From a virus: a DNA stretch of 64,000 nt. The stretch covers positions 96,545-160,544 of the IMG/VR virus record IMGVR_UViG_3300030104_006433; one strand, given 5' to 3'. The notes beneath the pieces are model-generated. The model was not told where the DNA came from, did not search any database, and saw only the letters and a list, made by a program, of their open reading frames with translations. Below are positions 7,902 through 44,076 of this stretch, in pieces; the stretch's first letter is position 1; every line of letters starts with the position of its first letter. Made by a program: the position numbers and the translations under genes.

Positions 7902-10337
7902 ATGTTATCAAAGGACGATTTTAAAGAATTAAATAGACTTGGAGAAGAATTTAAATCCAATTTAAATGATATCACATCCCAACTCCAACAAAGTGCTAGA
8001 GCTGGAGGAGATATGTCGGGATCTATTAAAGAGGCAGCTTCAAATCTTTCAAGCTATAGAAGTTTAGCAAATGACTTATCACAGTCTAGTAAATCAACCC
8101 TTAAATCCAAAAAAGAATTAGCTAAAATTGATAAAAGAGTTTATGACATTACTCAAAGGCAGTATCGAATTCAATCTAAAATAAAAGAATTAGATGATAA
8201 GAAAAAACAAGCTGGTGAGAAAGAACAAAAACAGATTGAAAAATCAATTACTTTATTACAAGATGCAGGCTATGAACTTAATGAAATTAAAAAAGGATAT
8301 GAAAAGATAGCATCTGAATCTAAAAAAATATCTGAATCTAACCCTTTTAAAGGATTATCTGACTTAGTATCAGATGTACCTATATTAAATAAATTATTTA
8401 AAGATATGGTCTCAGCTTCTGATAAGTTTCGTGAGACTATGGTAGATACAAATAATAAAGTTTTACCATCTTTAGCAGCGGGAATGAAGGAATACTTAAA
8501 GTTAGCTTCTAAAGCAGCTCGAGTCTTTCTAGTAAGATCAGCTATAAAATCTATTAAAATGTTAGATGACTCTTCAGTTAATCTAGCCAACCAAATGAAT
8601 ATCGGTAAGATGGAAGCTGCTGATATGAAAGAAATGTTTACAGCTGCTGCTCAAGCTAATGATGAATTATTACAATCATCATATGATTTAATAAAAGCAC
8701 AAGCAACATTAGGTACTATGTTTGGTACAACAGCTAAACTTAATGATGATACATTACGTACATTTAATATATTAACTGAAAGAATGGGAATAGCAGCTGA
8801 AGCAGCTGGATCTTTAGTTAATTTCTCAGCGGCTACAGGCCAAAACTTCATGGATTTTACAACAGAAATTCAAGGTACTGTTGTAGCAGAGACAGCACTT
8901 TCAGGTATTATGATTGATCAAAGAGCAGTTATTAATGATATTGCTAATTTAAGTAGTGCTACTAAAATGTCAATGCAAGCTCAGGGTCAAAGTTTAGGTA
9001 AAGCAGCTTTTGAAGCTAGAAAATTAGGTCTTAATCTAGCTGATATGGAAAAAATTGGAAATTCTTTATTGGATTTTGAACAATCTATAGCAAATGAGCT
9101 TGAAGCAGAACTTATAACAGGAAAAGAATTAAATCTTGAAAGAGCTAGATCAGCATATCTAAATAATGATATGGTTACTTTTACAGCTGAAATAGCTAAA
9201 AATGTAGGAACAGCTGCTGATTTTGCTAACATGAATAAAATAGCACAAGATTCTATAGCAGCCTCCTTTGGAATGCAAAGAGATGAGTTTGCTGATATGT
9301 TAATTAATCAAGAAGCTTTAAAAAAGTTCTCCAAAGAAGGACTTGAAACTGAGTCTGAAGTAGTTGAAGAAATGAGAAGAAGATTATTAGCTGGAGAATC
9401 TTATGACAAATTAGTAAAAAAATTCGGAAAAAGTGAAATGCTAAATAGAGCTAAAAACCTATCTATGCAGGATAAAATGAACAAAATGATCGAGAAAATG
9501 TATGATGTTCTTGATAAATATGTTAAACCTGTTTTCAAAGTAATAGATGGTTTACTTGAAAAAATGGGTGGTTCAGCTGGTATCTTAATGGGTGGTTTAG
9601 CTGCTTTAGCAATAGGAGGTCCTATTATTAGAGGAGTAATGATGATGGCTCGTTTATTTAGAGGTATGAGAGGACCAATGATGGGGGCACCAGGAATGGG
9701 AATGCCTTTTTACGGTCCGGCTGGAGGACCTGGTGGTGGTGGTATGGGTGGACCTATGTTTATGGGTGGCCCTACAGGTGGTTCTAATGCTTTACCAAAA
9801 GGTGTAAAAGCAGGTACAGACAAATTAGGTAGAAAATTTCATTATGATGCTAAAACAGGAAGAAGAGTTAGTGTGGGTAATATGGCTAGTAAAGCTAGTA
9901 CTTTAAGTAAAGTAGGTAAATTTGGTAAATTTGCTGGAAGAGCAAGTCTACCTGCTATGATTTTAGGTTTAGGTTTAGATTATGGATCAGATAAATTGAA
10001 AGAATCAGGTTATGAAGAGGCTGGTAAAGCAACTAGTGTGTTAGGAGGAGCATTAGGTGGAGCGGGTACAGGAGCTATGTTAGGTTCATTTCTTGGTCCA
10101 ATTGGAACAGCTGTAGGAGGAGTAGTAGGAGGTTTAATAGGTGGTGGAATGGCCGCTTTTTCAGAATATGGAGAAGATACAGAAAAAGCCACAGAACAAG
10201 GATCAGAAGGTGTTCAACAAGCAATTGATAATCAAACAAGACAATTAACAGCAGTATTACGTACAACAAGAAATGTTAATTTCAACCAAAACGCATTTAT
10301 AAGAGAACAAAGTATAAATTATAGTGGAATGAACTAA
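7902..10337 (+). CDS. Tape measure protein
   Basis: 811 aa Ala-rich helical protein after the chaperones; Gly/Met-rich segment and glycine zipper near the C-terminus. Confidence 0.8.
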   Translation: MLSKDDFKELNRLGEEFKSNLNDITSQLQQSARAGGDMSGSIKEAASNLSSYRSLANDLSQSSKSTLKSKKELAKIDKRVYDITQRQYRIQSKIKELDDKKKQAGEKEQKQIEKSITLLQDAGYELNEIKKGYEKIASESKKISESNPFKGLSDLVSDVPILNKLFKDMVSASDKFRETMVDTNNKVLPSLAAGMKEYLKLASKAARVFLVRSAIKSIKMLDDSSVNLANQMNIGKMEAADMKEMFTAAAQANDELLQSSYDLIKAQATLGTMFGTTAKLNDDTLRTFNILTERMGIAAEAAGSLVNFSAATGQNFMDFTTEIQGTVVAETALSGIMIDQRAVINDIANLSSATKMSMQAQGQSLGKAAFEARKLGLNLADMEKIGNSLLDFEQSIANELEAELITGKELNLERARSAYLNNDMVTFTAEIAKNVGTAADFANMNKIAQDSIAASFGMQRDEFADMLINQEALKKFSKEGLETESEVVEEMRRRLLAGESYDKLVKKFGKSEMLNRAKNLSMQDKMNKMIEKMYDVLDKYVKPVFKVIDGLLEKMGGSAGILMGGLAALAIGGPIIRGVMMMARLFRGMRGPMMGAPGMGMPFYGPAGGPGGGGMGGPMFMGGPTGGSNALPKGVKAGTDKLGRKFHYDAKTGRRVSVGNMASKASTLSKVGKFGKFAGRASLPAMILGLGLDYGSDKLKESGYEEAGKATSVLGGALGGAGTGAMLGSFLGPIGTAVGGVVGGLIGGGMAAFSEYGEDTEKATEQGSEGVQQAIDNQTRQLTAVLRTTRNVNFNQNAFIREQSINYSGMN

Positions 10338-17929: not shown

Positions 17930-19192
17930 ATGTTTTGGCTAGTAGAAAATAGTGAACAATTCTGGAATTTACACCAGAATGAAGAATATCATAAGGAGGC
18001 TTATATAGAAGTTATTCCCTACTCATACAAAACTCATCCAACAATTACTAAAGTATCTCTTGTATACTTACGTCCTTTAAATGCAAGTAAAGGATACATG
18101 ATATCAATAAACCATAGTGAATCTATGCCGTTAAACAACGAGTATATTGTAAATTTAATTAATAATTATGATATATTGCATGTTTGGGGAAAAAAAGAGT
18201 TTTTGCATTATTTTACGTGTAGAAATGTAAATGACATTTCTTTACTTTGTCCTGAATATGAAATGGAAACTACCAAAGCCCATCAAATTTTACAACAAAG
18301 AACTAAAAATAAGTTGGATATTAACAGAATTATTCCTATCGTTAAACATTATGAGACGTGTGAAAAAAATTATAATAATTTAAAACAATATTTTAATGAA
18401 CCAAACAACACATTTTACAACAACAGAGTACCATTGGTATTCAATGCCATTGAAAGGAATGGAATACAAGTGGATAGAGAACTCTTCAAAGAATATTTCA
18501 ACCAAGATTGGGGAGATAAAGTCTATACACAATATAATTACAGAACAACAACAACAAGACCCTCAAATAGATTTGGAGGAATAAATTTTGCTGCGTTAAA
18601 TAAAGAAAATGGAATACGTAAAACATTTATACCAAAAAATGATAAACTTGTTGAAATCGACATTTCAGCTTATCATCCTACTCTTGCTAGCTCCCTTATT
18701 GATTATAGCTTTGATGATAGAGATATTCATGCCTCATTTGCAAAAATGTATGGGGTGGATTACAAAAAATCTAAAGAATTAACATTTAAACAACTATATG
18801 GTGGGGTATTTGATCAATATAAACATTTAGAATTTTTTCAAAAGATACAAAATTTTATTGACAACTTATGGGATGATTTTCAAACTAAAGGATTTATTGA
18901 ATGTCCTATTTCAAAATATAAATTTGAAAAATCTAAGTTAGATAACATGAATCCACAAAAATTATTCAATTATCTATTACAGAATTTGGAGACAGCTAAA
19001 AATGTTCATATATTATGGGACATAATTAAAATATTAAAAAACAAAGATACAAAATTAGTATTATACACTTATGATGCTTTTCTACTAGATTTTAAACTCA
19101 CAGAAAGAACCACATTAGAACGCATATTAGATGTATTTAAAAAATATAAATTAAAAACAAAAATTACACATGGAACCAGTTATGACTTTTGA
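17930..19192 (+). CDS. Divergent, short family-A DNA polymerase-like protein
   Basis: TTTRPS, motif A EIDISAYHP, motif B KELTFKQLYGG, motif C LYTYDAFL; only 420 aa. Confidence 0.75.
   Translation: MFWLVENSEQFWNLHQNEEYHKEAYIEVIPYSYKTHPTITKVSLVYLRPLNASKGYMISINHSESMPLNNEYIVNLINNYDILHVWGKKEFLHYFTCRNVNDISLLCPEYEMETTKAHQILQQRTKNKLDINRIIPIVKHYETCEKNYNNLKQYFNEPNNTFYNNRVPLVFNAIERNGIQVDRELFKEYFNQDWGDKVYTQYNYRTTTTRPSNRFGGINFAALNKENGIRKTFIPKNDKLVEIDISAYHPTLASSLIDYSFDDRDIHASFAKMYGVDYKKSKELTFKQLYGGVFDQYKHLEFFQKIQNFIDNLWDDFQTKGFIECPISKYKFEKSKLDNMNPQKLFNYLLQNLETAKNVHILWDIIKILKNKDTKLVLYTYDAFLLDFKLTERTTLERILDVFKKYKLKTKITHGTSYDF
18609..18782 (+). CDS. Candidate nested +1-frame small membrane protein inside the polA-like gene
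   Basis: MEYVKHLYQKMINLLKSTFQLIILLLLAPLLIIALMIEIFMPHLQKCMGWITKNLKN; host frame uses CTT/ATC/GTT instead of NTA codons. Confidence 0.35.
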   Translation: MEYVKHLYQKMINLLKSTFQLIILLLLAPLLIIALMIEIFMPHLQKCMGWITKNLKN

Positions 19193-24074: not shown

Positions 24075-25061
24075 ATGGCAAAATCAAGATTACTTCAGGA
24101 AAGAATAGTTTATAAACCATTTGAATATCAAGCAGCAGCTGATTACTGGTTAAAACAACAACAAGCTCATTGGTTACATACTGAAGTACCAATGATGTCT
24201 GATATAAATGATTGGAAACAAAATCTATCAGAAACAGAAAAAAATATAGTAGGAACTATTTTAAAAGGATTTGCACAAACTGAAACAGTAGTAAATGATT
24301 ACTGGTCAGGATTAGTAACAAAATGGTTTCGAAAACCTGAAATAATAATGATGGCCACAACATTTGGAGCTTTTGAAACAATACATGCTGAAGCTTATTC
24401 TTTACTTAATGAGGAATTAGGATTGGATGATTTTAGTGAATTTTTAGAGGATGAAACTACAATGGCCAAGATTGAAAATTTAATGAATGTGAGAGATAAT
24501 TTTAATGGGGAAAAAGATTGGCATGAGATAGCCAAATCATTAGCTGTATTTTCAGCTTTCACAGAAGGAGTAAATTTATTTTCTTCATTTGCAGTTTTAT
24601 TATCTTTTAAAATGCAAAATAAACTTAAAGGTGTAGGCCAAATAGTAGAATGGAGTATTAGAGATGAATCATTACATTCAGAAGCAGGATGTTGGTTATT
24701 TAGAACATTAATAAAAGAAAACCCAGATTTAAATACACCAGAATTAGAAGCAGCAATTAATGAGGCAGCTTTATTATCACTACAATTAGAACTTAATTTC
24801 ATAGAAAAAGTTTATGAATTAGGAGATTTAGAAGGTTGTTCTAAATACAACTTAACTAACTTTATAAAAAACAGAGTTAATACAAAATTAGCTGATTTAG
24901 GTTACACTCCTATTTTAACTGATATAGATATGAAAGCAGTTAATGAAATGAAATGGTTTGATTCTTTAAGCGCAGGAAAACAACATACAGATTTCTTTGC
25001 AAATAGAGTAACAAATTATAGTAAGGGACACTTAGAATGGGACGCAGCATCAATATTTTAA
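24075..25061 (+). CDS. nrdB: Ribonucleotide reductase class Ia beta subunit
   Basis: ETIHAEAYS, EGVNLFSSF, RDESLH, DFFANRVTNYSK. Confidence 0.95.
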   Translation: MAKSRLLQERIVYKPFEYQAAADYWLKQQQAHWLHTEVPMMSDINDWKQNLSETEKNIVGTILKGFAQTETVVNDYWSGLVTKWFRKPEIIMMATTFGAFETIHAEAYSLLNEELGLDDFSEFLEDETTMAKIENLMNVRDNFNGEKDWHEIAKSLAVFSAFTEGVNLFSSFAVLLSFKMQNKLKGVGQIVEWSIRDESLHSEAGCWLFRTLIKENPDLNTPELEAAINEAALLSLQLELNFIEKVYELGDLEGCSKYNLTNFIKNRVNTKLADLGYTPILTDIDMKAVNEMKWFDSLSAGKQHTDFFANRVTNYSKGHLEWDAASIF

Positions 25062-32835: not shown

Positions 32836-33609
32836 ATGTTAAAAAGAATAAAGGATTACAATAAAGTACTCCCTGTATTAGAATTATATAGGTGTGTACA
32901 ATCAGAAGGGTCAAGATTTGGAAGGCCCACAATAGCAGTAAGAACAACAGGATGTACACATAGATGCTACTTTGGAGAAGGTGGATGGTGTGATTCTTGG
33001 TATACAAGTATTCATCCTGAAAAAGGCACATTTACATTTAATGATATTATCAAAATATATGATGATAATCCTCATGTGAATGAAATGATGCTAACAGGTG
33101 GGTCACCTACTATGCATCCAGCTTTAGTTAATGAATTAACACATTTTGCAAATGAAAGAGATATTCTTATTACAATCGAAACTGAAGGTTCTCATTTTCT
33201 TGAAACTGACCACCCCTTGGATCTTATTAGTCTTAGCCCTAAGTTTTCTAATTCAGTTCCTATGCCCGGGACTACCACTCCTAATGGTGCGTTGGTTGAT
33301 GAAAGGATGGTCAAAGTCCACAACCGACTTAGATTAAATAAAGATGCTATTAGAAAAACACTAGATTATCATAAAGATTATCATTTCAAACCAGTATGGG
33401 ATGGTACAGATGAAAATTTAGAAGAAATAGAAGCTTTTAGAATTGAAATGGAAATTCCAAAATATAAAACTTTTATGATGCCAGCTGGAGATACTAGAGA
33501 AACATTAATTAAAATGTACCCTAAGGTATTTAGATTATGTGAGGAAAAAGGATACAATATGACTGGTAGGGATCATATAATAGCATTTGATACAGAACGA
33601 GGAGTATGA
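32836..33609 (+). CDS. queE: 7-carboxy-7-deazaguanine synthase (radical SAM)
   Basis: QSEG..G.P..VRT.GC..RC...WCDS, LTGG.P, IETEG, LSPK. Confidence 0.92.
   Translation: MLKRIKDYNKVLPVLELYRCVQSEGSRFGRPTIAVRTTGCTHRCYFGEGGWCDSWYTSIHPEKGTFTFNDIIKIYDDNPHVNEMMLTGGSPTMHPALVNELTHFANERDILITIETEGSHFLETDHPLDLISLSPKFSNSVPMPGTTTPNGALVDERMVKVHNRLRLNKDAIRKTLDYHKDYHFKPVWDGTDENLEEIEAFRIEMEIPKYKTFMMPAGDTRETLIKMYPKVFRLCEEKGYNMTGRDHIIAFDTERGV
33152..33337 (+). CDS. Candidate nested +1-frame membrane protein inside queE
   Basis: MKEIFLLQSKLKVLIFLKLTTPWILLVLALSFLIQFLCPGLPLLMVRWLMKGWSKSTTDLD; coincides with a codon-shifted patch. Confidence 0.4.
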   Translation: MKEIFLLQSKLKVLIFLKLTTPWILLVLALSFLIQFLCPGLPLLMVRWLMKGWSKSTTDLD

Positions 33610-33790: not shown

Positions 33791-33805
33791 AGCAAAATTA
33801 AATAA

Positions 33806-35315: not shown

Positions 35316-35443
35316 AACCTATAAAAAAAATAAAGGCTACAATGAAAGAAATTTATGATGCGATGCGTCCAAATGTTTATCGTAACCGAAAAAAATACAC
35401 AAGAAAAAATAAACATAAAAATAAAAGTTATGACAAAAGTTAA
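35312..35443 (+). CDS. Small basic hypothetical protein
   Basis: (L)KPIKKIKATMKEIYDAMRPNVYRNRKKYTRKNKHK...; fills the gap and overlaps both neighbours. Confidence 0.45.
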   Translation: MKPIKKIKATMKEIYDAMRPNVYRNRKKYTRKNKHKNKSYDKS

Positions 35444-36125
35444 AAAAAGAACATTAAATGAGTATAGACAAGTAAAAGATGCTTCTTATACCCCACCAAA
35501 AAAAGGACAAAAATTTGAAATACCAAAATTTGATCCCCAAACAGGAGAACTAAATCCTTATTATTTAGAATTAACAGGAAAAGATAGTTTCAATCAATTA
35601 GAAATACCTTTTGAATTCCAAACTGATAATGTAGACTTTGTAAATGAAGTAGAAGAATTTAATAGAACTTTTGGTAAACCGAATAATTATAAACCAACAA
35701 TACCAGCCAAAAAAGAATGGCAATTTGTATATGATTTTATACTCGAAGAACTTGAAGAATATAAAGAAGCATGCGAGCGAGGTGACATCGTGGAAGTTTT
35801 GGATGCTTTGTGTGATATTACTTACGTTTCCCTTGGGAACGGTGTTATGTTACATGGCCTTAAGGATAAGATTTGGCCCGCGTATCAAGAAGTACAAGAT
35901 TCAAATATGTCAAAATCTTGTAAAACTAAAGAAGAAGCAATCAAAACTGTCTATAAAAGAAGTGAGGAACAAGGTGAGGAATGTCATTTTGAAAAAGTAG
36001 GAGATAGATATGTTGTTTATAGAACAAGAGATAGAAAAGTAATGAAATCAATAAATTACTTTAGACCTGATTTACATCAATTTTTCACACCAGAAGAAAC
36101 TGAAGGAGCAATTAAGAATGTATAA
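35430..36125 (+). CDS. MazG-like / PRA-PH-type nucleotide pyrophosphohydrolase
   Basis: EELEEY...EVLDALCD..YV and SNMSK; start likely 35430 rather than 35355. Confidence 0.8.
   Translation: MTKVKKRTLNEYRQVKDASYTPPKKGQKFEIPKFDPQTGELNPYYLELTGKDSFNQLEIPFEFQTDNVDFVNEVEEFNRTFGKPNNYKPTIPAKKEWQFVYDFILEELEEYKEACERGDIVEVLDALCDITYVSLGNGVMLHGLKDKIWPAYQEVQDSNMSKSCKTKEEAIKTVYKRSEEQGEECHFEKVGDRYVVYRTRDRKVMKSINYFRPDLHQFFTPEETEGAIKNV
35731..36000 (+). CDS. Candidate nested +1-frame single-TM protein inside the MazG-like gene
   Basis: MILYSKNLKNIKKHASEVTSWKFWMLCVILLTFPLGTVLCYMALRIRFGPRIKKYK...; +1 frame open for more than 110 codons. Confidence 0.45.
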   Translation: MILYSKNLKNIKKHASEVTSWKFWMLCVILLTFPLGTVLCYMALRIRFGPRIKKYKIQICQNLVKLKKKQSKLSIKEVRNKVRNVILKK

Positions 36126-42818: not shown

Positions 42819-43153
42819 AATTAATGAGTCCTAAATTACCTAAAAAATAATGCTTATGGAAAATTTAGATATAATTATAGGAACCCTGATTGGATCAGGT
42901 TTAACTGCTTTAGTGGCAATTTTTGTTACTAGGGTTTCAAATCGATTTAAACAGGTAAATGAAGACTTACAAAGTGTAAGTAGAGATCACTCAACTAGTT
43001 TGGATGCTGTGTATGATAGTAATTCAAGAGAAGTTGAGAATATATATAGAGAAATTGATTCTCAAATTAATAAACTAGAATCTAGATTGGTAAAACAATT
43101 TAAAGATTATAATTACAATAAATAATTAACCCAATTTAGGACTCTTAATTTTA
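42816..43153. repeat. About 21-bp inverted repeat bracketing ORF 42850-43125
   Basis: TAAAATTAA(T)GAGTCCTAAATT (42816-42837) and AATTTAGGACTCTTAATTTTA (43133-43153). Confidence 0.8.
42850..43125 (+). CDS. Single-TM coiled-coil small protein
   Basis: N-terminal hydrophobic helix followed by a coiled coil (IDSQINKLESRL). Confidence 0.65.
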   Translation: MLMENLDIIIGTLIGSGLTALVAIFVTRVSNRFKQVNEDLQSVSRDHSTSLDAVYDSNSREVENIYREIDSQINKLESRLVKQFKDYNYNK

Positions 43154-44076
43154 TGAAAGACCACACATTATTAGTAGAAAAATATCGATCTAACACTCTT
43201 GATGAATATGTAGGTAATAACCATATTAAAACCCAAATACAAAAATACTTAGACCAGGATGATATTCAAAACTTCATTTTTTATGGCCCTGCTGGTACAG
43301 GGAAAACTACTCTCGCTAAACTCATTGTTAATAATTTGGACTGCGATTACTTATACATTAACGCTTCTGATGAACGGGGTATCGAAACTATTAGGGATAA
43401 AGTCACCAACTTCTCAAGTACTGCTTCGTTTCGACAGATCAAAGTTGTCATACTCGATGAGGCAGATTTCCTCACAATTCAAGCGCAAGCATCATTAAGA
43501 AATGTAATAGAAACATTTTCTAGGAATACACGTTTTATTATGACGTGTAATTTTATAGAGAGGATAATAGATCCACTACAATCAAGATGCCAAGTACTAA
43601 AAATAGTACCCCCAAGTAAAAAAGAAGTAGCAAAACATTTAAAAGAAATATTAGATACAGAACAAACAAAATTCAAAGTTGAAGCTCTCGTTAACATAGT
43701 TAACACACATCATCCGGATATACGAAAAATGTTAAACACAATTCAGTTATCTACTAAAGATAATGAGTTAGTACTAGATGAATCAATCATAGTATCATCC
43801 AATTATATAAAACAAGTTATAACAGAATTAAAAAACCCAAAAACAGATTATCGAAAGTTAAGACAAATAATTGCTGACTCGGGAGTTAAAGATTTTGAAG
43901 AATTATATAGATCATTATTTGACCAAGCAGGAGAGTATGCTAAAGGTAGAGAGGGTAGTGTAGCTATGATTTTAAATGAACATCAATATCATTCAAATTT
44001 TAGAATTGATAAGGAAATTAATATAGCAAGTGCTTTAGCAAAAATAATAGAAACCAAAAAACCACAAGTAATATGA
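43153..44076 (+). CDS. Clamp loader large subunit (gp44/RFC-like AAA+)
   Basis: VEKYR, GPAGTGKTT, NASDERG, LDEAD, SRC. Confidence 0.95.
   Translation: MKDHTLLVEKYRSNTLDEYVGNNHIKTQIQKYLDQDDIQNFIFYGPAGTGKTTLAKLIVNNLDCDYLYINASDERGIETIRDKVTNFSSTASFRQIKVVILDEADFLTIQAQASLRNVIETFSRNTRFIMTCNFIERIIDPLQSRCQVLKIVPPSKKEVAKHLKEILDTEQTKFKVEALVNIVNTHHPDIRKMLNTIQLSTKDNELVLDESIIVSSNYIKQVITELKNPKTDYRKLRQIIADSGVKDFEELYRSLFDQAGEYAKGREGSVAMILNEHQYHSNFRIDKEINIASALAKIIETKKPQVI
43259..43498 (+). CDS. Candidate nested +1-frame protein inside the clamp loader gene
   Basis: 79 aa with hydrophobic N-half and basic C-end; matches a patch of CTC/ATC/GTC/CGG/TCG codons. Confidence 0.4.
   Translation: MIFKTSFFMALLVQGKLLSLNSLLIIWTAITYTLTLLMNGVSKLLGIKSPTSQVLLRFDRSKLSYSMRQISSQFKRKHH

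Follow-up and report, generated by a model that had tools for sequence, protein, structure and literature searches.

Evidence for a conserved gene overprinted in the +1 frame of a MazG-like gene in immuto-like phages

Does a phage enzyme gene that stays open in a second reading frame encode a second protein? The question is raised by the window (the whole stretch of DNA analysed here, 64,000 nucleotides), which makes up the final 64 kb of a viral record 160.5 kb long and 99% complete. Its GC content is 27–33%, and its long ORFs all lie on the plus strand. Among cultured phages, the Flavobacterium phages vB_FspM_immuto (160 kb) are closest to it. On the minus strand, two antisense ORFs (106 aa at 8270–8590, 135 aa at 24395–24802) are found within plus-strand genes. 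Inside the gene for a MazG-like enzyme, the +1 frame is free of stops over a long region, and the 89-aa product that it would encode contains WKFWMLCVILLTFPLGTVLCYMAL and then RIRFGPRIKKYK. The locus has the following features:

35355..36125, plus strand: host gene, a MazG/PRA-PH-like NTP pyrophosphohydrolase (256-aa ORF; a later ATG may be the true start)
35650..35652, plus strand: last upstream stop of the +1 frame, a TAG made by the host codons GTA and GAA, at a position common to most relatives
35653..36000, plus strand: stop-free +1 frame, 115 codons plus TAG (35998–36000)
35731..36000, plus strand: predicted nested CDS, 89 aa plus stop, pI 10.6, starting at the first ATG of the frame
35791..35862, plus strand: predicted TM segment, nested residues 21–44 (WKFW...YMAL), with a central F-P-L-G-T motif
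35863..35997, plus strand: polybasic C-terminal tail, predicted helical, net charge +16, with conserved R-Y/F-G and K-Y-K motifs

The host protein matches Pfam PF01503 over residues 99–164 (E 2.3e-11, 44.4 bits against a cutoff of 21.3), and because this match spans the EExxE...D core we assign the protein to the MazG/PRA-PH group. It also matches phrog_671, "nucleotide pyrophosphohydrolase" (E about 8.5e-31). The gene is flanked by genes for a FolE2 GTP cyclohydrolase and a family-B DNA polymerase (PolB) and sits within a 7-deazaguanine cluster; its immuto ortholog neighbours queD, queE, folE, dpdA and queF. In immuto DNA every G is replaced by formyl-preQ1 (PMC10516641).

The sequence-only reading had described the 89-aa ORF starting at ATG 35731 as the product of the longest same-strand alternative frame in the window. 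Its coordinates and peptide strings are correct, and the 115-codon run is indeed the longest of its kind in about 55 kb of coding sequence, the runner-up reaching 81 codons. Background +1 runs in the window average 8.6 codons, with a +1 stop frequency of 0.10 per codon. When the MazG protein was held fixed and synonymous codons were drawn from usage in the other genes of the window, 7.2 +1 stops were expected over this stretch of the gene, and the frame was open in 0 of 20000 resamplings; the analytic probability of a stop-free frame is about 1.5e-6. Nor did shuffling of synonymous codons within the gene ever yield an open run of 115 codons. At 12 codon junctions a synonymous choice could make a +1 stop, with a probability as high as 0.83–0.88 at several of them because TTA is the dominant Leu codon, and all 12 avoid it. 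A chance origin of the open +1 frame in the window is thus excluded. The host codons over the nested ORF had also been called atypical, which background usage bears out (CTC 0.02, TGC 0.10, CGA 0.04, ATC 0.07, GTG 0.04, TCC 0.05, CTT 0.09, GGG 0.09, CCC 0.08, GCG 0.03), and as claimed they cover the EELEE...DALCD core, within the PF01503 match. No second copy of the nested gene was found in the window's own 160.5-kb genome.

Is the frame kept open in relatives? Scanning IMG/VR with the host protein yielded 80 loci at 61–97% identity, among 442 relatives, all 80 matching the window in AT-richness. The finding named beforehand as fatal to the idea was an interrupted +1 frame in close relatives. 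In a codon alignment the frame was open over the same region in 76 of the 80 loci, with total runs of 115–149 codons, while runs in the +2 frame, used as a control, spanned just 2–61 codons. Using background codon usage from the flanking genes of the same loci, we expected a mean of 6.9 +1 stops per relative, and the probability of observing none ranged from 1e-7 to 2e-4 per sequence. Sixty of the 67 distinct sequences have no stop and four have one (L001, L061, L062 and L077, each explained by a shifted upstream boundary or an alignment edge); the remainder form the loss clade discussed below. A second scan, seeded with a deep-branching member, added 64 further distinct sequences, several on contigs of 156–164 kb, and the nested frame was present in every one (98–154 codons). 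The length of the ORF depends on the clade, relatives ending after 115, 120, 129/130 or more codons. The nested gene is also present in a cultured phage, Flavobacterium phage immuto 2-6A (117 aa, ATG at MW353175.1:33446, stop ending at 33799, equivalent to L081:3059-3412), inside the annotated pyrophosphohydrolase CDS immuto26A_63, and it is unannotated in both GenBank and RefSeq.

A further line of evidence lies in the codons of the host gene. Inside the ORF, Leu, Ile and Val codons ending in TA occur before a pyrimidine in 299 of 575 cases (52%) and before a purine in 0 of 567; TA before a purine was seen only at the natural stop of the 115-codon class. Columns vulnerable to a stop still vary synonymously (CTT/CTC, TTG/CTC/CTT/CTG, ATC/ATT), and at least 50 parsimony changes at these columns include none that makes a stop. 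Over the core of the TM segment (35788–35876), synonymous diversity of the host gene is 0.234 against 0.445 expected, or about half, and past the end of the ORF it is neutral (0.409 against 0.417 expected). The codons fixed in this core are rare in the background (GTG 0.04, TTG 0.04, TCC 0.05, GGG 0.09, GGC 0.04, CTT 0.09 and GTC 0.02). Read in the +1 frame, the fixed rare codons specify residues W21, F23, L26, L30, F33, P34, G36, T37, L44, R47, Y48 and Y55.

Could the frame be open without any second protein, owing to a nucleotide-level constraint or a mosaic patch of higher GC? The patch is GC-richer than its surroundings; GC of the host gene exceeds that of the locus in all intact loci and returns to locus level in the loss clade, and the region is 78.5% identical to immuto at the DNA level. 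Yet TA-ending codons are common where no +1 stop is possible and absent where one is, synonymous codons at the vulnerable sites vary freely among the allowed alternatives, and the +2 frame has a normal number of stops. The RNA fold is unremarkable (z-score −1.26, 20 of 200 shuffles folding as well), and an Rfam search returned no match. The context dependence of TA codons, together with the fold and the Rfam result, led us to reject a GC-rich patch or nucleotide element, and we regard an open frame with no second protein behind it as scarcely credible. Such a codon pattern is expected under selection on a second protein and is not expected from a GC-rich patch, RNA structure or avoidance of a DNA motif. 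Judged from these alignments, purifying selection is shown to act on the open frame, on its start codon and on specific residues of its putative product.

The only interrupted sequences provide a natural control:

Loss-clade loci L003, L004 and L007: IMG/VR contigs 3300037991_007584, 3300037634_003468 and 3300009433_003150

These three loci form one monophyletic clade, sister to L005 and near the window, and contain 7, 4–5 and 8 stops, respectively, against 6.5–8.0 expected. The loss clade is thus at the neutral stop number, which calibrates the null model: neutral expectation predicts well wherever the gene is absent. Compared with intact sequences, its synonymous codon identity is lowered in the core (0.51 vs 0.76) and nowhere else, being unchanged downstream of the ORF (0.60 vs 0.61). 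We considered that TAG might be recoded in this clade, where the stops are mostly TAG, and rejected it on several grounds: (i) the predominance of TAG matches the expected TAG:TAA ratio; (ii) TAA is also present in L003 and L007; (iii) TAG terminates ordinary ORFs in these contigs; and (iv) the nested residues change non-conservatively in the interrupted clade. No replacement copy of the gene was found in the available parts of the loss-clade contigs (5–33% complete). With the frame open in 76 of the 80 loci and in all 64 sequences of the second scan, and with a single interrupted clade at the neutral stop number, the earlier proposal of a genuine gene for a single-TM protein, nested in the +1 frame, is supported.

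Where did the gene come from? MazG genes of three outgroups (two uncultured jumbo phages at 39% identity and Tenacibaculum phage PTm1 at 29%) do not carry the nested frame, their longest +1 runs being 24, 29 and 56 codons. The phylogenetic distribution indicates that the nested gene arose in one MazG clade and was lost once, and since the outgroup MazG genes are without it, its origin would have been de novo within MazG.

How would such a gene be started? Every one of the 64 distinct intact sequences has an ATG after the upstream stop and before the TM segment. The usual position, however, is not the one used to define the CDS in the window:

35689..35691, plus strand: usual start position of the family, ATA in the window (ATG lost)

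An ATG occupies the equivalent of 35689 in 61 of the 64, with A at −3 in 59 of 60 and at −6 in 60 of 60; A at these two positions promotes initiation in Flavobacterium, which uses no Shine-Dalgarno sequence (PMC6847099). The three remaining sequences are the window, L001 and L005, which have ATA there and all carry ATG at 35731. In L001, which is 97% identical, an upstream stop leaves the 35731 ATG as the sole start before the TM segment. The 35731 ATG is therefore not where the family usually starts. The first stop-avoiding site, at 35742, lies just past 35731, so +1 translation must start before 35742.

The poor context of the 35731 ATG (T at −3), the lost ancestral ATG and the outright loss of the ORF in the nearest clade, L003/L004/L007, mean that the copy in the window could be weakly expressed or in early decay. 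The gene might then be real in the family while the window holds a decaying or non-expressed remnant. Against this, the cores of the window, L001 and L005 contain no stop where about seven are expected, and the frame has remained open although the window and L005 differ at 10 of 41 core codons for the same amino acid, about a quarter. The window also retains the rare selected codons GTG, GCT, ATT, TCC, GGG, AAC and CTT, and the same compensating ATG is common to all three sequences. We therefore consider a remnant very improbable.

What do protein databases hold of the nested frame? A profile search of 5.8 billion proteins returned 60 matches, which were either nested ORFs picked by gene callers or chimeras of MazG and the nested frame. 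The chimeras (P0014, P0017, P0041, P0047 and others) read the MazG N-terminus and then the nested frame, as would be expected if +1 frameshifting or transcriptional slippage fused the MazG N-terminus to the TM segment and basic tail. An upstream A-run (GAA AAA AAG) and the use of +1 frameshifting by Flavobacterium prfB (PMC10798248) also speak for such a fusion. The chimeras, however, are 1-nt deletions in DNA at short A-runs, with junctions that differ, which fits sequencing indels. The two chimeras examined, at L086:2501-2986 and L087:1826-2392, have deletions at the same short A-run, lie on contigs with neighbouring JGI identifiers and leave the downstream MazG frame intact, and in the L087 assembly neighbouring genes are fragmented too. 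We thus read the chimeras as probable sequencing or assembly indels and rejected them as natural fusions. Moreover, the A-run is not conserved as a homopolymer, AAA, AAG and GAA alternating along it; no conserved shift-prone codon with a slow codon after it was seen downstream of the upstream stop and ahead of the first stop-avoiding site; and the well-placed ATG is kept across the family and compensated when lost. A fused product is, in our judgement, very improbable.

An exhaustive search of 1.84 billion representatives gave 27 matches, one of which is not nested at all:

L171:4001-4225: P0070, a free-standing 74-aa homologue on a 78-kb phage-like ENA contig, k141_537059

P0070 matches the nested family with E 1.3e-6 library-wide (1.84 billion proteins) and an hhalign probability of 98%, and in a tblastn search of 2.3 Gb of phage genomes its sole matches were the +1 frames of immuto MazG genes. 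It shares with the nested protein the motif SW[KR]FW, 9 residues, P-x-G-T, 6 residues, L-[KR]-x-R-Y, 3 residues, I-x-K-Y-K, and retains 9 of the 12 residues that are directly selected in the nested copies. Unlike the nested gene it stands free, at 74 aa on a PolA-type phage contig, between thioredoxin and exonuclease genes on one side and an intein-bearing PolA gene on the other; the other frames at the locus are closed, so that it is not overlapped. P0070 is a singleton in the databases. A profile search of the six-frame translation detected no MazG remnant beneath it, and the direction of descent consequently rests on the outgroup argument. We take P0070 as probable evidence that the nested product functions as an independent protein.

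What kind of protein would the gene encode? An alignment of 54 nested products has a mean column identity of 63% and the core SWKFWMLC.ILLMFPLGTVLCYMAL[KR]IRYG..IKKYK..IC. The hydrophobic peak of the window product is TM-like (Kyte-Doolittle 19-residue mean 2.24), as the sequence-only reading had proposed. We rejected excess hydrophobicity as a signal of selection, because 12.6% of stop-free synonymous simulations are at least as hydrophobic; a predisposition of the +1 frame to hydrophobicity came with the host frame, as is often the case in overprinted genes, and the argument for membrane insertion accordingly draws on conservation and on features of the helix. The positive-inside flank that had been proposed along with the helix is only partly informative: both sides are basic (net charge +3 on the N-side, +16 on the C-side), which makes the topology uncertain. 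The AF2 model has three helices (2–31, 34–48 and 50–88) with a mean pLDDT of 70, and about 80 over residues 21–70. Family searches with the nested product gave nothing above threshold in Pfam (best, Connexin, E 0.004), nothing below E 0.018 in PHROGs and no significant match among ESM Atlas clusters (best score 0.76).

We conclude that 35731..36000 is very probably a genuine coding gene that overprints the MazG-like gene in its +1 frame. The comparisons show that purifying selection maintains the frame, a start codon upstream of the hydrophobic segment and the identity of specific residues in a large clade of marine Flavobacteriia phages that resemble immuto (about 160 kb).

What could the product do? 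Initiation independent of a Shine-Dalgarno sequence is usual in Bacteroidota, and the nested frame would be translated from the mRNA of the host gene by internal initiation of this type, at the equivalent of ATG 35689 in relatives and at 35731 in the window. The product would be a very basic, single-pass inner-membrane protein of 89–119 aa. A short N-terminal part would lead into a helix of 24 residues, belted by aromatic residues (W..W, Y) and kinked at Pro-x-Gly-Thr, followed by a polybasic helix of about 45–60 aa that is predicted to be cytoplasmic; by charge, the orientation would be N-out/C-in. Most speculatively, the protein would be made together with the products of nucleotide-metabolism, DNA-modification and replication genes and act at the membrane through its basic tail in the early or middle phase of infection. 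Our preferred guess is that the tail tethers DNA or the replication/nucleotide machinery, much as phi29 p16.7 does; superinfection exclusion or a role of the holin/antiholin type would be alternative guesses. The gene appears to have been born de novo inside MazG and seemingly escaped once as a free-standing gene.

Other genes of the window also carry long +1 frames. In the clamp-loader gene (43153..44076), an 81-codon +1 frame at 43253–43498 is open in 34 of 61 distinct relatives, where about 8.8 stops are expected; it is open in all relatives of at least 84% identity, and other lineages have 3–11 stops. This is probably another conserved nested gene, one that has been lost several times. Within 18384–18782 of the PolA-like gene (17930..19192), a 60-codon +1 frame from 18600 has stayed open in 28 of 31 distinct relatives, some with as little as 49% identity, where 3.8 stops are expected; the frame from 18384 is open in 8 of 32, most of the others having one stop. 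A 65-codon +1 frame in queE (32836..33609; frame at 33140–33337) is patchy: 17 of 57 relatives have no stop where 7.2 are expected, many have 1–3 and others 5–11, and one relative that is 96% identical has 9. This pattern suggests patch-wise recombination or recent loss.

These frames hint that phages of this group carry nested genes as a general trait. One may go further and propose that immuto-like Flavobacteriia phages conserve several +1 overprinted genes, the MazG-nested one among them and others lying in the PolA-like gene, the clamp loader and, in a patchy way, QueE. Overprinting would then be a systematic route of gene birth in phages whose Bacteroidota hosts initiate without a Shine-Dalgarno sequence, which would make internal AUGs easy to use, and the MazG-nested gene would already have escaped once as P0070; we hold this wider proposal to be possible, though on balance doubtful. 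The MazG case suggests that further hidden genes are present in such phage genomes. The MazG-nested gene is an unusually clean comparative case, with more than 120 diverged open sequences, a loss clade that provides calibration, outgroups that do not have the gene and a free-standing homologue. It adds an unrecognised predicted membrane protein to widespread marine phages with fully 7-deazaguanine-modified DNA, and offers a tractable system for studying how genes arise de novo and how the catalytic core of an enzyme is constrained in two frames. Its presence, unannotated, in the cultured pair of Flavobacterium phage immuto 2-6A and strain LMO8 makes it directly testable.

How does the nested gene compare with known systems? 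The protein phi29 p16.7 is a small early membrane protein with one TM helix and a cytoplasmic part that binds nucleic acid, and it anchors replicating phage DNA. The nested protein resembles it as a small one-TM protein encoded with replication genes, and may likewise bind DNA, as the +16 tail would suggest; p16.7 differs in being encoded by a free-standing gene and in having no known similarity to it in sequence or fold. Holins, antiholins and proteins of the T4 Imm/Sp type are also small phage membrane proteins, and holins typically have a highly charged C-terminal cytoplasmic tail. A holin calls for at least one TMD and a charged C-terminal tail, and the nested product offers one TM-like helix and the +16 tail. 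It differs from these proteins in having no adjacent endolysin gene, late-gene context or family match, and its neighbours, the FolE2 and PolB genes here and the que/dpdA genes in immuto, do not constitute a lysis cassette.

Overprinting and nesting are known in phages from Rz/Rz1 and phiX174 D/E (reviewed in PMC8227390 and PMC3494269). Our literature searches returned no report of a gene inside a phage MazG, and the immuto papers make no mention of one. Like phiX174 E (in D) and MS2 L, the nested gene is overprinted in +1 and would encode about 90 aa with one TM helix, a conserved proline and a basic hydrophilic remainder. E and L, however, are the sole lysis genes of tiny ssDNA and ssRNA phages, whereas the nested gene resides in a 160-kb myovirus-type genome, and its TM segment is central rather than N-terminal. 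Lambda Rz1 is a lipoprotein with a lipobox that works with the product of its host gene in lysis. The nested protein differs in this respect: its cysteines lie in WMLC, TVLC and QIC contexts, so the o-spanin lipobox [LVI][ASTVI][GAS]C is absent (TVLC and WMLC do not fit it), its host gene encodes an enzyme of nucleotide metabolism, and there is no lysis context. What it has in common with Rz1 is its architecture, that of a small gene fully nested in the +1 frame on the same strand of a larger dsDNA-phage gene and missed by gene callers. Fully nested genes of this kind are well documented in tiny phages and for Rz/Rz1, but demonstrated cases from large dsDNA phages are rare, and gene callers do not allow them.
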